DNA from: Vulcanimicrobiota bacterium
Lineage (GTDB): Bacteria; Vulcanimicrobiota; Xenobia; Xenobiales; JADMJV01
Assembly: GCA_050250895.1 (NCBI GenBank)
Contig: JBFWNU010000008.1
Location: forward strand, 96,001-160,000
Direction: 5' to 3'
DNA: 64,000 bases
The notes under the pieces were generated by a model, which ran no database searches, had not been told where the DNA came from, and saw only the letters and a list, made by a program, of their open reading frames with translations. The translations under genes were made by a program, and so were the position numbers. The first letter of the stretch is position 1, and every line of letters begins with the position of its first letter. Of the stretch, positions 39,606-49,459 are shown piece after piece.

Positions 39606-40652
39606 ATGCGCGAAGAGCTAGCCAGGCTACTGGGGCAACTCGAGGGCGATACTGCTCGAGTCCGGGGTCGTTTCACCTTTGACCCGGTGGTCGGCTTACG
39701 CCGGTTGGCCCAGGACCGCTTTCGCCAGCCCGAGAGCTATCTGTTGGCGCTGGTCCAGGCAGCCGTGGCGGCCGGGGCCCGTCGCTTTGAGCTCGAGCGT
39801 CATCCCCTCTACGCCTGCGCCTGTTGGGATGGAGACAGCAGTCGCCTGGAGCCGCTCGCGACCTGTCTGCGGTCACTGACGGCCGAACATTTGCTGTTCT
39901 GGCCTATGGTGGGCGCGGCCGCCAGCGGGGCCTCGAGAGTGTTATTACAGACCCGGGCCCAGTCTCAGGCTCTTTTGATCGAGCCCGGCCGGTTGGAGAT
40001 GGTCGAATTGCCAAGCCGCCGTCCCGAGTTGGGCTGGAGCCATCGACTGCTGTTGTCATTTGCGGCCGGTCGAGGCTTCCGTAAGGTTCCCACCGAGTTG
40101 TCGGTGCTGCGCGAGCGGTGCCTTTTCGCGCCGCTTCGGCTCAGCTGCAACGGCTCGCCGCTCGAGCCCGAAGTCGGGAAGCCGGGCCGTAGCTGGCCCT
40201 GGAAGGCCCGGCCCGGAGTGCTGCTGGAGTGGGTCTATCCGGGTTGGGGACTGTATCTGCCAGCCGTCAAAGGGCAGCTGCGCGAGCTGCGCCCCGAGGG
40301 CCCGGGCTCGGCCCGGGTCGCTTTGCCGCCCCAGGGCACCCGCAGCTACGGAGCCTGGCTGGCCCTCGAGAGCGACCTGTCACCGGGCCTGGAGTGTCGG
40401 GTCGTCCACCAGGGCGTGGTGGTTGCGCGTACCCTCCTGGCGGCGCGGCTGGGCGGTCTGGCTGTGTGCTCGAGCGAGGGGATGGAGCTCGAGGCGTCGG
40501 GTCTGCGCCTGGTGGACCAGCGCTGGCCAGCCACGGTGACTGTCTTCGAGACGGAGCTCGAACGCCTGATCGAGCGGGCCCGGGGCCTCGGAGACAGCCT
40601 GCCTCTAAGCCCGGCCGGCCGGCGCCGGCTTCAGGCTGAGGCCGGCCAGTAG
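39606..40652 (+). CDS. Hypothetical protein with a degenerate GHKL/Hsp90-like N-terminal segment
   Basis: GRFTFD...P.SYLLALVQAAVAAGA resembles the N-box helix; start ATG 39606. Confidence 0.5.
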   Translation: MREELARLLGQLEGDTARVRGRFTFDPVVGLRRLAQDRFRQPESYLLALVQAAVAAGARRFELERHPLYACACWDGDSSRLEPLATCLRSLTAEHLLFWPMVGAAASGASRVLLQTRAQSQALLIEPGRLEMVELPSRRPELGWSHRLLLSFAAGRGFRKVPTELSVLRERCLFAPLRLSCNGSPLEPEVGKPGRSWPWKARPGVLLEWVYPGWGLYLPAVKGQLRELRPEGPGSARVALPPQGTRSYGAWLALESDLSPGLECRVVHQGVVVARTLLAARLGGLAVCSSEGMELEASGLRLVDQRWPATVTVFETELERLIERARGLGDSLPLSPAGRRRLQAEAGQ

Positions 40653-43600
40653 CATGGCCGTCAGGCCCGCGGTGGACGGAAAGCCTCCCTGGCTGCCTAG
40701 CTCGACCAGGCCCGTGCGCAAATCGACGGTCATTTCCAGCACGGCATCGTAGAGACGCACGACCCAGGCGGGGGTCGTGGCCTGGCTGCTGACTCGGACC
40801 GGATGCAGTGACCCATCGGGGGCGCGAAACAGGTGCAGCCCGCTTTCGGCGGCCAGCAAGCGGTGGCAGAGCAAGCCTTCGATAGCCAGGCCCCGGGCGG
40901 CGGGTCGAGCCTCCAGAGCCATGTTTTCGGCCAGGCTTTCGAAGCAGGTTTTGAGGCCTGTGCCCCATTCGGGATCGCCCAGGGCGGTGAACTGCAGGCT
41001 CAATCGGGTAGGGGAGGGCGCGGCCAGTTCCGCCGCCGTGTGGAGTAGCAGTGCCCAATCGGCCAGCACCGGGCTAGGCTTGGCTTCGGGTCGCTCGGCG
41101 CAGGCGGTCGCCAGCCTCTGCAGCTCCTGGGTCAGCGAACCCGCCAGTAACCCCAGCCAGAGTGGTTCGGGGGCCATGACCAGGCGCGGGCCGCTGTCGC
41201 GCCGACGGGTCTTGCGCTCAGTATTGCGCAAGCTGGCCCGCAGACGCCGGGCTTCATCGCGGGCAGCGAAGTAGGCTAGTTCGGCGTGGCTGGGCTCTTC
41301 TCCGATGGTGGTGGGAGCGGCCGGGTTGATCACCTCGGCCTCAAGCATTTCGAGCTGGCGCGTCAGTTCGGGGAGTTCCGGGCGGGGACCGCGCTGGTCG
41401 CGCACCCGGGGGCAGGCCGCCAGGGGCTCGAGTTCCACCGTGATCGGGCTGCCCGCTCGTAAGCGCAGCAGAGTCGGGGTTTCGGGCGGGACCGAGGCGA
41501 GCAGGGCAGCCAGCGGGGCGGTGATGTGACGCTCGACCTCACGCTTGAGGGCTCGCGCTCCTAGTTCGGGGTGATAACCGGTCTCCACAATCTTGTCGAG
41601 GGCCTGGGGGTCCACCGCCAGGATGCACTGGCGGCGCACCAGGCCGGCGCGGTGGAAGAGGTTCTCGATGAGCCCGCTGGCCAATTCTCGAACCTCGTCT
41701 CGCGGAAGGCGTGCGAAGGGTACGATACGGTCCAGGCGATTGACGAACTCGGGGGCGAAAAAGGCCCCGACGGCTTTGCGGTAAGCCAGGGATTCCTCGT
41801 GATCGCGACTGCGAATGCCGAAGGCTCTTCCGACCTCCTGGGCCCCGACATTGGAGGTGAGAATTACCAGGCACTGGCTGAAATCGGCCGTGCGGCCCAG
41901 GGCATCGGTGAGGCGCGCGTCCCCGAGTAATCCGAGCAGCAGGTTGAACACATCGGGGTGGGCCTTTTCGATTTCGTCGAGCAGCAGCACGCAGAACGGT
42001 TGGCGTCGGACGGCTGCAGCCAGCAAGCCCTCGGGATGGCGCTCGTCGCCAACCAGCCGGGCCACCGCGTCGGGCTGGAGAAACTCGTTCATGTCGAAGC
42101 GGACCATGCGGTCTGGGGCGCCGAAAAGGTATTCCGCCAGGAGGCGCGCGCAGTGGGTTTTGCCCACGCCGGTGGGGCCGACGAAGAGAAGGTTGGCCAG
42201 GGGGCGCCCCGGTTCGCAGAGGCCGGCTTTGAGCACGGTGACGGTGTCCACCAGCGCCTTCAGAGCCTCGGGCTGGCCCGCCAGCCGGGCGACAAAGTGG
42301 GCCTCGAGCTCGGCGGGGTCGAGGTCCTGGCGCTCGTCGAGGATGGCCGAGGCCAGACCGGTCTGGGCGCTAAACTGCTCGAGCACCCGGGTCCGGCCGA
42401 TGCGCTCGCCTTTATAGGTTGTGCCGCACTGGCGCAGCAGACGCACGGCCTTGCCCGGAAAGCACAGCCAGGGTAGGTGGCGATTCCCGAGTTCGCGCGC
42501 CGTCTCGAAGGCCTCGAGTTCGAACTGGCAGTCGAACTCTCGCTCGAGTTGACGCGCTTGCGAGAGCAGCACGCCCAGGGTGACGGTGGGGTTGGTCTCT
42601 TCGAGGTGAACCGTCTGGAACTGATCGCACAACCCCCGGTCGCGCTCTTGCAGGCGGGACCAGGCGGATGGGGTCATCTCGGCCAGGACTCGGACCGAGC
42701 GCCGTTCGATGTAGGGGCGCAGCACATCGATCACCGAGAGTTCGCAGTCGCGACTCTGGCCCGCCCGGTAGAGCCCCGGAAAGTCGTCAAAATAGAGCAC
42801 CAGCTCACCCTTCTGAGCGTGCTCTAAAATAGCCAGCAGGCGCCGCTCCCATTGGCCCAGATAAGACATGCCCGAGATCAAGCGTTGGGGGCCGAGCAGC
42901 CAAAGGCGGCGGCTTCGTGGGTCCTGATGGAGCTGCCTGCGGGCTAGTTCATGGATGAGAGCCGTCTTGCCAACCAGGGGGCCTCCCAACACCACCACCG
43001 GGGCGTGGCTTTCCAGCGCCTGTTCCAATTGCTGGCTCTGGGGTCCGCGACCGTCGCAGGGCGAGAGAGCATCGGGATAGAGGTCTTCCAGGCAGCGACC
43101 AACTCGCTCGAGTTCAGCCATGCCGGTGCCAACCCGTGCTTCTTCGAGCAAGGCCTGGCCATCGTGGGCAGCCTCGTCGAGCCGGTTGCGATCCGGCTCG
43201 AGTTCGAGTTCCAGGCTGGTGAGCCAGGCTCGCCCCGCCAGACTGACCTCCTCGGGAGAGGGTTTGGGCTGGCGACGAAAATAGTCGACCAGAAACCGCG
43301 CGAGCTCGCTTTTGATGTCTTCGGGTCGGGCAACCTCGAACCAAACCTGGGGCAGGGCCGGCAGATGGACGAGCCAGCGCTCGAACTGGCGAAAAAAGAT
43401 CACCAGCAGGCGACAATGAGCCGTTCGTTTGGCCAGGGGAAAGGTCACCTCGAGCAGTTTCTCGCGCAGAGGCGGGCTGAACAGATGCTCGGCTAACTCG
43501 TCCTGGCGAGGCAGTTGGCTGATCTCCTCGAGCTCTTTGCGCACTGACCCGGCCAGGCGGTGCAGGACCCGTTCAAGCCGCTGCCCGCGTTCTCGCAGAT

Positions 43601-49300: not shown

Positions 49301-49459
49301 CACGCCGGCCAGCAGGTGGCCCAACCCTTCTTCGAGTCGCTGCAACACCTCTTCTGGTTGTTCTGCCAGGGCTGAAAACTCGGGAAAGAACAGCGCCTGG
49401 CCCAGCCAGCCCTCGGGGCCCGCTGGACGCAGCCACACCAGCACCGGCAGCGTGCTCAA
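46361..49459 (-). CDS. Second Clp/Hsp100-like double AAA+ ATPase with C-terminal release-factor-like domains
   Basis: GPPGCGKT; GPSGVGKT, RFDMSEY, VLFDELEKA, MTSNLG, FRPELFNRID, GARHLKR; C-terminal EGPGVFARLEPETGLH and RHYDYSKGIAEDFRLG. Confidence 0.88.
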   Translation of the reverse strand: MSTLPVLVWLRPAGPEGWLGQALFFPEFSALAEQPEEVLQRLEEGLGHLLAGVPEQHHHNLAEPEHWVQERVVVQARPAEPAGFSRAVELAFDYLRWPQGAGLWGACVPALDLELLAPKTQEPAEFVAQSIEQELRRRGLLANLGGLVSLPCGPFEFRRLEIACEPGQVTEENPLQELATALKPDQMPRAYEFDELVEKLAEWLEPGCKSVLLCGPPGCGKTALVRELVRRKASLQLGATPFYETTGSRLLAGAEGFGMWQQNCQRLIEAAANQKAVVHLGALTHLLEAGRSASTPEGMAEYLRPAMARGRLSAICECDPEQLRNLEERAPHLLAAFSLFEMEAPGAGAGQSILLKTAVEWAGSEDTIELEALECIDRLHRRFATYSAYPGRPLRFLRGLLEGGSQKITEETVCQTFSQETGLPLFLVSPTERYHPDETLDYFASRVLGQPLAASMVTDAITRAKSGVTRVGRPIVSLLFVGPSGVGKTEMARTLAGFLFSDASRVVRFDMSEYSDPWAVERLIRGPDGAGALTSAVRGRPFSVVLFDELEKADPSLFDLLLGILGEGRVSDAAGRTADFSNTVVIMTSNLGVDSFRQSGMGLRQVAPTGDAHFVESARKSFRPELFNRIDRVIPFAPLEPADIQRLAAREVGRLEQRHGLATQRARLTPSPALLTRLSQLGYDAAFGARHLKRVVHDEVVVPLARSLCQGKPRVVGLEVKLEARATRTRAGERLEQAAQRRRRLDRLKGSVSALELENEITQLERLESQASPAGHADPDQLRWLSRLPARKALWKRLSSALAQAEAVEEQYLVEGPEAPELLKQLDEQAQGLLLALYSLHFDRPDQATVGIFAASTPMVRRLLALYTELPGLLSQCYAVFAPAHPWKPGGFACVAGQWVSQPDEQAELLAFPYRGELPQECLGAICCLEGPGVFARLEPETGLHTFDGGHHCLVEVSEGEISGYHPAEEVRARRTRFLAAKRRHYDYSKGIAEDFRLGKQTSWSGKNPAPVVGAWIEQVYLQRAEAHVLTS

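Follow-up and report, generated by a model that had tools for sequence, protein, structure and literature searches.

The analyzed window, a stretch of 64,000 nucleotides from a Vulcanimicrobiota bacterium (assembly GCA_050250895.1, contig JBFWNU010000008.1, positions 96,001 to 160,000), carries two large genes on the reverse strand that are designated A and B here. Gene A (P0002) spans 46361–49459 (−) and encodes a protein of 1032 residues from a TTG start, and gene B (P0001) spans 40605–43682 (−) and encodes 1025 residues from an ATG start. Protein A is a Clp-type two-ring AAA+ ATPase with a C-terminal module that resembles release factors (RFs), and B is a paralog of A with identical architecture. 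A first-pass annotation of this DNA had described two paralogous same-strand proteins with two AAA+ modules each, and both open reading frames (ORFs) are open over this length. In Pfam, the first AAA+ module, D1, is assigned to AAA, and the second, D2, to AAA_2 (140.8 and 141.3 bits in the two proteins) followed by ClpB_D2-small (41.5 and 39.2 bits); the RF-like module directly follows the D2-small part. By BLASTP, A and B share 36% identity over 509 residues, which comprise the ATPase core only, and the N- and C-terminal ~200–300 residues give no alignment between the two proteins.

Neither A nor B reaches the cut-off of the NCBIfam equivalogs ClpA, ClpB, ClpV, ClpK, or ClpG. The best score of B is 308.5 bits, with cut-offs of 993 for ClpA and 1232 for ClpB, and the best score of A is 284.4 bits (ClpB), far under every cut-off. 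The ClpA model TIGR02639 spans residues 228–725 of B and 212–713 of A. Since this alignment runs across D1 and D2 with no large insertion, a ClpB-type middle domain is absent. In the JGI annotation, two of ten cluster members are called ClpA.

Release-factor homology of the C-terminal modules

The homology of the A and B tails to the class I release factors RF1 and RF2, comprising domain 1 and domains 2/4, is confirmed. The module of A (residues 714–1032; 46364–47320, (−)) was delineated by profile, hhalign, and AlphaFold2 (AF2) model and features a helical part resembling RF domain 1 at about 46940–47287 and a sandwich resembling domains 2/4 at 46364–46924, with no domain 3. Its ExGxH motif is ETGLH at 46625–46639, and the motif RRxYD..ED lies at 46463–46513. 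The module of B (residues 735–1025; 40608–41480, (−)) is more diverged and carries ESGLH at 40833–40847, VVRLYD at 40746–40763, and VDLRTG at 40710–40727. The positions that the first-pass annotation had given for ETGLH and ESGLH are correct, and RRHYDYSKGIAEDFRLG, VVRLYD, and VDLRTG, which it had quoted, are found in the window proteins as well.

Taken as single sequences, the two tails match no Pfam family, PCRF (PF03462) included, even at E ≤ 10, and no PDB chain, so that the search against the Pfam models PCRF and RF-1 that had been proposed as a check is negative for both window tails. A word-based homolog search retrieves two proteins for the A tail, and for the B tail its own protein alone. 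Searched exhaustively with HMMER, the A tail yields 101 cluster representatives, in nearly all of which the domain lies at the extreme end of proteins of ~1050–1170 residues or in fragments of such proteins. The hidden Markov model of this family aligns collinearly with the RF1 and RF2 of the same genome, running from late domain 1 into early domain 2, covering the ExGxH strand and the 'RTYN...D.R' strand, and jumping RF residues ~229–327, that is, the GGQ domain. Forty-five A-type C-terminal domains were combined in the alignment A1, which includes an overhang of the D2-small part. Scanned singly against Pfam, one of these 45 members gives PCRF, at an E-value of 0.13. The A1 profile finds RF2 (2ihr, E 2.8e-7) and RF1 (1rq0, E 2.9e-5) among 177,635 PDB sequences; the 60 matches listed are 24 RFs, 35 Clp/Hsp104 proteins, which are there because of the D2-small overhang, and one coiled-coil protein. 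With hhalign, A1 aligns to 24 RFs from genomes of the phylum at a probability of 95% and E 4e-8. Across A1, identity to the A tail of the window is 20–37%, and the near-invariant residues are Y154, E228, G230, H232, R271, and D282 together with a P-P pair. As judged from sequence, the motif likeness of the tails to RFs is more than chance.

The AF2 model of the A tail, built with A1, has a predicted local distance difference test score (pLDDT) of 86.6 and a predicted template-modeling score (pTM) of 0.84. The best 32 of 33 Foldseek matches in the PDB at E ≤ 1e-3 are all RF1, RF2, or mtRF1. In VIA comparisons, which are a second look at Foldseek's own match list and not an independent fold search, ranks 1–41 are all RFs with Z 11.6–14.6, and the first unrelated structure follows at Z 9.4; 1gqe is matched at Z 14.6 over 243 residues, and 1rq0_A at Z 13.7 with a root-mean-square deviation (rmsd) of 2.4 Å over 143 residues of domains 2/4. 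For B, 35 tails were combined in the alignment A3, which aligns by hhalign to A1 at 95.6% and E 1.3e-8 and to the RF alignment at 66% and E 5.5e-5. The AF2 model of the B tail has a pLDDT of 91.5 and a pTM of 0.88, and its 11 Foldseek matches at E ≤ 1e-3 are without exception RFs. By VIA, ranks 1–44 are RF1, RF2, mtRF1, or PrfH, with the unrelated ones at Z 7.4; 1gqe reaches Z 14.8, and 5mdw_7 reaches Z 14.6 with an rmsd of 2.1 Å over 125 residues. The RF-like C-termini of the first-pass annotation are borne out by the A1 profile, by hhalign, and by the AF2 models, and the comparison of such models with RF1/RF2 by Foldseek, which had been suggested there, returns RFs as top matches for both tails. 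In the PDB, A3 matches best the beta' subunit of RNA polymerase (E 0.0046), which is regarded as a chance match.

The fusion is directly visible in a more distant relative from the Eremiobacterota, L147:4679–8257(−) (G004), whose 1193 residues are assigned by Pfam to HEAT_2, AAA, AAA_2, ClpB_D2-small, and PCRF, the last with 37.4 bits at a Pfam cut-off of 24. About 170 residues beyond its PCRF match have no assignment.

The module has lost the parts of an RF that act in peptide release and in codon recognition. GGQ and SPF are absent anywhere in A and B, and neither protein matches Pfam RF-1 (PF00472). Where RFs have the ~100-residue domain 3 inserted, the models of A and B each show a linker of about 20 residues between the counterparts of the RF strands '...VAVMPE' and 'RTYN(F)'. 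In the alignments, the loop after ExGxH falls short of its RF counterpart by ~8–10 residues, and the helix tip GGxE that precedes the '...RMY' motif is replaced or gone. In RFs, these two parts, the post-ExGxH loop with its PxT or SPF and the GGxE tip, are the stop-codon-reading elements. The sole PxT of the A tail is the PET within ExGxH, off the position of the RF loop. The first-pass annotation had noted the lack of a GGQ domain 3 and of a PxT/SPF loop, which holds for both proteins. On the evidence of the alignments and the predicted models, the module consists of domain 1 and domains 2/4 of an RF from which the hydrolase domain was excised and the means of reading codons were lost.

Many distant A-type tails (P0004–P0104) carry the pattern ...Y-x-P-P-x-G-I-E-R-R-G-x-I-G-x-Q-x-x-R-R-x-Y-D. 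A G-x-Q is found at most 12 residues upstream of R-[RK]-x-[YFW] in 24 of the 89 representatives bearing the latter motif, and four of these 24 read GGQ; the stretch aligns with the RF segment just before RTYN, not with the GGQ loop, and is absent from the window proteins. An A-type protein from another family of the class, L030:1508–2635 (−) (G090), has an insert within its RF-like module that resembles the C-terminal domain (CTD) of ribosomal protein L7/L12 (24.3 bits at a cut-off of 25.9, profile positions 1–38 of 67). The A1 profile also matches a 367-residue RF-like frame with one in-frame TGA (G097:C1:1179651–1180172 (−)), a feature that is expected for the programmed frameshift of prfB.

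The three-paralog Clp set

In related Eremiobacterota, A is followed by B and B by a third, shorter Clp-like gene, C, which encodes ~720–830 residues and has no RF tail. The tandem A-B-C is present in eight of the eight Eremiobacterota loci with enough flank; six of the eight C genes were checked by alignment and tree, two by ORF size and end similarity only. At the loci of relatives, ORFs were taken from stop to stop, so that gene starts are approximate there, and counts across related genomes are descriptive because kin are not independent. The C gene of the present genome (G000:C2; L148:7659–9845) encodes 728 residues and lies on a separate contig from A and B. It falls within the C clade of a quick maximum-likelihood tree (SH-like approximate likelihood-ratio test as sole support, midpoint root, the C of L072 left out because a contig end truncates it); the internal groupings of the A, B, and C clades in this tree agree with one another. 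The first-pass annotation had missed this third subunit. The L147 relative with the visible PCRF fusion is a single-gene variant, with no B- or C-like neighbor within 16 kb around.

A wider scan was performed with one genome per species and a distant family member, P0015, as query. Full-length relatives occur in Acidobacteriota (Blastocatellia, Pyrinomonadaceae, Holophagae, and Acanthopleuribacter pedis KCTC 12899) and further in Planctomycetota, Verrucomicrobiota, Lentisphaerae, Polyangiaceae, and metagenome-assembled genomes labeled proteobacterium or Clostridia. The complete A-B-C tandem is present at 22 of the 37 loci (L038–L074), among them that of the cultured Acanthopleuribacter pedis KCTC 12899 (L069), which has the complete operon. 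Six loci are consistent with the tandem and interrupted by a contig end; at one (L072), three Clp-like genes are present, of which the first gives no RF match at E ≤ 1e-3; four have A alone with at least 10 kb downstream; and four are too short to tell. The four genomes with A alone carry on other contigs a second paralog of ~1122–1146 residues, taken as B by size only, and a full-length C-type match of 780–795 residues. Within the phylum, full-length matches of the A1 profile occur in 16 of the 201 sampled genomes: nine of 15 genomes of family f1 plus the present one, all five of f3, and the single one of f5, all of them 5–9.5 Mb in size. The six f1 genomes that lack A also give no match for B.

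No other gene family is conserved as a neighbor beside the trio in the related loci compared. In the present genome, the C gene is surrounded by HNH/DUF222, FliF-like, SpoIIE phosphatase, histidine kinase, VWA/ADP-ribosylglycohydrolase, and AraC-type regulator genes, and nothing informative is found among these. As predicted by gene order and phylogeny, A and B are two subunits of a conserved three-paralog Clp set, usually encoded as a tandem operon.

The three proteins also share an N-terminal domain. It comprises ~195 residues in A (48875–49459, (−)) and ~215 residues in B (43038–43682, (−)), and hhalign relates the N-domains of A and B at 97.2%, of A and C at 97.4%, and of B and C at 90.6%. 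The N-terminal 200–210 residues of A and B match no Pfam family, and Clp_N is not found at E ≤ 10. Against the PDB, the N-domain profile has as its only top match 2yzt_A (E 0.0047), presumably a HicB-like small protein, which serves as a lead only; a protein-atlas search with the N-domain of A gave nothing usable.

D1 of A (48140–48874, (−)) features the Walker A motif GPPGCGKT at 48794–48817, the pore loop GFGMW at 48680–48694, and at the Walker B position VVHLGAL (48611–48631), which has no acidic residue. Its D2 with D2-small (47321–48139, (−)) carries the Walker A motif GPSGVGKT and the Walker B motif LFDELEK, a shortened pore loop without GYVG, and GMGL (47651–47662) where ClpC has its IGF loop. 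D1 of B (42303–43037, (−)) has the Walker A motif GGPLVGKT at 42963–42986, a Walker B motif LYFDDF at 42780–42797 with D-D replacing D-E, and a pore loop SYLGQW (42849–42866) in which the tyrosine is retained. D2 with D2-small of B (41481–42302, (−)) features GPTGVGKT and LLDEIEK as Walker A and B motifs, a likewise shortened pore loop, and AFGI (41814–41825) at the IGF-loop position.

These motif states recur in an alignment of 22 A, 22 B, and 21 C sequences together with the other Clp paralogs of the genome. The Walker A motif of D1 is intact in A, B, and C, as in the ClpB/ClpC-like paralogs. The Walker B position of D1 is acidic in none of the 22 A sequences, reads D-D in 21 of 22 B sequences, and has an acidic first residue in C, with D-E in none of 21; the paralogs have D-E. 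The D1 pore loop is G-[FY]-G-x-W in A and carries Y or F in 20 of 22 B and Y in all 21 C sequences, the paralogs having Y (H in one of four). The D-E of the D2 Walker B motif is strictly conserved (A 22/22, B 22/22, C 21/21, hence 65/65) and is present in the paralogs; sensor 1, the arginine finger, and sensor 2 of D2 are conserved throughout A, B, and C. The D2 pore-loop region counts mostly 14 residues in A and C and 14 in B, with GYVG absent, compared with 18–19 residues in the paralogs, three of four of which have a GYVG-type loop, so that the loop of the trio is about five residues shorter than in the ClpB/ClpC-like paralogs of the genome. An x-G-[FLIVY] motif occupies the ClpC IGF position in 20 of 22 A, 22 of 22 B, and 20 of 21 C sequences; the ClpC-like paralog has IGF and the ClpB-like one a gap. 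This ClpA/ClpC-type x-G-F/L loop, which the first-pass annotation had missed, could mean docking to ClpP. From these motif states, D1 would be a nucleotide-binding but largely silent ring and D2 the motor, with the usual D2 grip on polypeptides missing. Because the D2 pore loop is shortened and devoid of GYVG and the Walker B motif of D1 is defective, classical polypeptide threading cannot be assumed. A heteromeric A/B/C ring is plausible, strengthened by the conserved trio of co-inherited paralogs with complementary motif states.

Proposed ribosome docking and competing explanations

Compared with RF1 and RF2 (PCRF plus RF-1), the modules are alike in the fold and arrangement of domain 1 and the domain 2/4 sandwich; domains 2/4 superpose with an rmsd of 2.1–2.4 Å, the highest Z values are 14.6 (A) and 14.8 (B), and the motifs ExGxH and R-x-Y...D-x-R/L are common to both. 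However, the modules lack domain 3, GGQ, the PxT/SPF loop, and the G-G-x-E tip, and they are fused to the C-terminus of an ATPase of ~720 residues. With the ClpA/ClpC/ClpB group, the proteins have in common the two AAA+ modules, the AAA_2-type D2, and D2-small; the ClpB-type middle domain is missing, and an x-G-F/L loop occupies the ClpC IGF position. They differ in having an N-domain of their own instead of Clp_N, a degenerate D1 Walker B motif, a D2 without GYVG, and an RF-like tail; moreover, the trio consists of three paralogs whose co-occurrence is apparently obligate. By these comparisons, A and B are not members of the RF family, because the GGQ domain and the decoding elements are missing, nor are they ClpA, ClpB, ClpC, or ClpV, because the curated cut-offs are not reached and Clp_N, the D1 Walker B motif, and the D2 GYVG are lacking; they combine parts of both.

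Specialized uses of the bacterial RF scaffold are also known from PrfH/RF-H (with RtcB) and from ArfA/BrfA-RF2, in their case in ribosome rescue. PrfH is the mirror image of the window modules: it lacks domain 1 and keeps the GGQ domain, as described in the sections of PMC6514570 considered here, whereas the window modules keep domain 1 and lack the GGQ domain. PrfH structures are the next VIA matches of the B module after RF1 and RF2 (Z 9.3 and 8.8). Balon, a bacterial hibernation factor of the RF superfamily, has neither the stop-codon motif nor GGQ any longer, yet it binds in the A site with no need of mRNA, according to the sections of PMC10901736 considered here. It has the aeRF1 fold and a middle domain that reaches the peptidyl-transferase center, stands alone, and works with EF-Tu, whereas the window module has the bacterial RF fold, no middle domain, and an ATPase fused to it. 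No aeRF1-type chain is among the structural matches listed for the A and B tails, the top ones all being bacterial class I RFs. In the same sections of PMC6514570, Dom34 is described as an RF paralog without release activity and Vms1 as an RF-like protein partnered with the double-ring AAA+ protein Cdc48, both in the context of stalled ribosomes. The likeness to Pelota/Dom34-ABCE1 and Vms1-Cdc48 is an analogy of working only; the aeRF1 fold is unrelated to the bacterial RF fold, and the partners there are separate polypeptides, not fused as here. ABCE1 acts in ribosome splitting.

The preferred reading, put forward tentatively, is that the ring of the trio would dock on the ribosome through its dead RF modules, independently of the codon, and remodel its target at the expense of ATP. 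A, B, and C would form one hetero-oligomeric double ring whose modules would bind at the site of RF1 and RF2—the A site, the decoding center, and the stalk region—with no codon needed. D2, as the sole intact ATPase ring directly upstream of the RF module, would power remodeling instead of peptide release. Remodeling might then mean the splitting or clearing of stalled, vacant, or hibernating ribosomes or the pulling off of a bound protein or nascent chain; an extracted protein would possibly be passed to ClpP, a hand-over that the conserved x-G-F/L loop leaves possible. This reading is favored because RF domain 1 and domains 2/4 are retained in RF geometry across phyla and because dead RF-superfamily proteins in the A site have precedents, namely Balon and Dom34/Pelota in the cited sections. 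That both parts are kept in the RF arrangement despite deep divergence would speak for continued RF-like constraint. The L7/L12-CTD-like insert of one member is a weak hint at the translation apparatus.

Several points weigh against docking and remodeling. Docking of the modules on ribosomes is reasoned from sequences and predicted models. The conserved residues Y154, E228, G230, H232, R271, and D282 belong to the core of the RF fold and may serve folding alone. The modules are not basic, with K+R to D+E counts of 38/42 in A and 32/33 in B, and subunit C has no RF module. The A3 profile of the B tail finds no RF in the PDB by HMMER, and the loci compared contain no ribosome-, tRNA-, or rescue-related operon neighbor. 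The D2 (exit) face is where the RF modules are attached, whereas the usual entry face for Clp substrates is that of D1. A threading unfoldase is doubtful, because the tyrosine of GYVG is missing from the D2 pore loop and hydrolysis in D1 cannot be assumed. Of the earlier interpretation, the derivation from RFs and the loss of GGQ and of the codon-reading loops stand; the simple unfoldase is doubtful, given a hydrolysis-competent D2 without the GYVG tyrosine and a D1 without a working Walker B motif.

An unlikely explanation is that the fold was exapted, the RF module acting off the ribosome as a regulatory, oligomerization, or substrate- or adaptor-binding domain of a Clp machine that perhaps docks to ClpP. 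The loss of every decoding and catalytic element would fit this explanation, as would the x-G-[FLIVY] motif at the ClpC IGF position where the ClpB-like paralog has a gap, the fast evolution of the module (two word-search matches, low identity to the window A tail in A1), a subunit C that does without it, and the lack of translation-related neighbors. However, a generic scaffold would not need to keep both domain 1 and domains 2/4 arranged as in RFs over at least five phyla, ClpP would hardly be fed efficiently through a D2 pore loop that is shortened and has no GYVG, and the L7/L12-CTD-like insert, below its cut-off as it is, hints at the translation apparatus.

Quite improbable is an arrangement in which the dead RF modules would plug A sites in the manner of Balon or Pelota and the ring would be an ATP-regulated tether or a hibernation or storage factor that does no mechanical work. 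Bacteria do have dead members of the RF superfamily that bind in the A site regardless of mRNA, as the sections of PMC10901736 considered here describe for Balon, a ring would bear several RF modules, its pore loops are atypical, and the Eremiobacterota carriers have only large genomes of 5–9.5 Mb, a trait confounded by phylogeny. Yet the strict conservation of the D2 motifs in A, B, and C—the Walker B motif, the sensors, and the arginine finger—fits mechanical cycling better, and no hibernation factor is seen as a neighbor at the loci.

Very improbable is a conflict system whose RF-like module would act as a decoy for, or a sensor of, phage or toxin proteins directed at RFs or the A site and would trigger an AAA+ effector: the patchy distribution across phyla and within the family (absent from six of 15 genomes), the variable neighborhoods, and matches to the PADLOC models DolB and PDC-M37B would agree with it, but these matches cover the generic AAA_2 only (residues 442–591, up to 598, of P0002 and 458–621 of P0001), no defense gene is a conserved neighbor, A, B, and C have no nuclease, protease, or NADase effector domain, and the matching groupings of the A, B, and C clades look like long co-inheritance and not like rapid turnover. 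Membership of A and B in a PADLOC defense system was rejected, the matches being confined to the D2 ATPase.

Within codon-independent docking and remodeling, a more specific version is that the trio is a self-contained bacterial counterpart of Pelota-ABCE1 and Vms1-Cdc48, in which a heteromeric Clp ring with codon-blind A-site probes would exert ATP-driven force on ribosomes. This version is somewhat doubtful; if true, the trio would be a new type of machine that rescues or recycles ribosomes. Bolder still, and less probable, is the corollary that the module of domain 1 and domains 2/4 represents the form of the bacterial RF before the GGQ domain was inserted.

In bacteria, stalled ribosomes are rescued or split by tmRNA, ArfA/ArfB, HflX, MutS2, and RqcH-type factors. 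Should the RF modules dock on ribosomes, the trio would be a new way, driven by ATP, of controlling the quality of ribosomes or recycling them in several large-genome phyla, and its modules would be natural RFs with the hydrolase domain cleanly removed, which bears on the evolutionary assembly of RFs. If ribosome remodeling were shown, the trio would be a categorically new system. Even if exapted, the trio would be an unusual bacterial three-paralog Clp ring, apparently obligate, whose D1 is silent and whose D2 pore is atypical. Among the titles and abstract openings searched, no Clp-RF fusion was found, and the supplementary lists of PMC6514570 may hold such architectures; in the literature searched, an AAA+ unfoldase-type machine wired to an RF scaffold was not found either. 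The survey of RF evolution in PMC6514570 follows the hydrolase domain, and its sections considered here contain no mention of a hydrolase-less RF module or of a Clp fusion. The family is directly testable, since the cultured Acanthopleuribacter pedis KCTC 12899 carries the complete operon.

Genomic surroundings

A is the final gene of a run of four genes on the same strand that are linked via 4-nucleotide overlaps and extend upstream of it over 49456–52168 (−). The run starts with an ankyrin-repeat protein (51524–52168, (−)), followed by a gene of the squalene/phytoene synthase family (50502–51527, (−)) and a Beta-lactamase2 family gene (49456–50505, (−)); the start of A overlaps the stop of the latter by 4 nucleotides. 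The order synthase–lactamase–A is repeated in a genome of the same genus (L025).

In the window, A and B are split by three genes on the opposite strand, 43790–46371 (+); in relatives, the two are adjacent. None of the three has a significant Pfam family. Two of them feature, as judged by their translations, type IV pilin-like N-termini (G-F-N-L-L-E... and ...T-T-L-I-E-L...), and the third (44812–46371, (+), 519 residues) shows a hydrophobic stretch in its N-terminal part and a run of ~37 glycine residues. A further ORF of 372 residues without a Pfam family (39534–40652, (+)) converges on B and overlaps its end by 48 nucleotides; an ORF of similar size with matching position and orientation is present in a same-genus genome (L026, 4690–5745). 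Beyond it lie an APH-family phosphotransferase gene at 38588–39676 and, at 32897–37946, a purine-biosynthesis cluster whose translations resemble PurD, PurM, PurN, and PurH.

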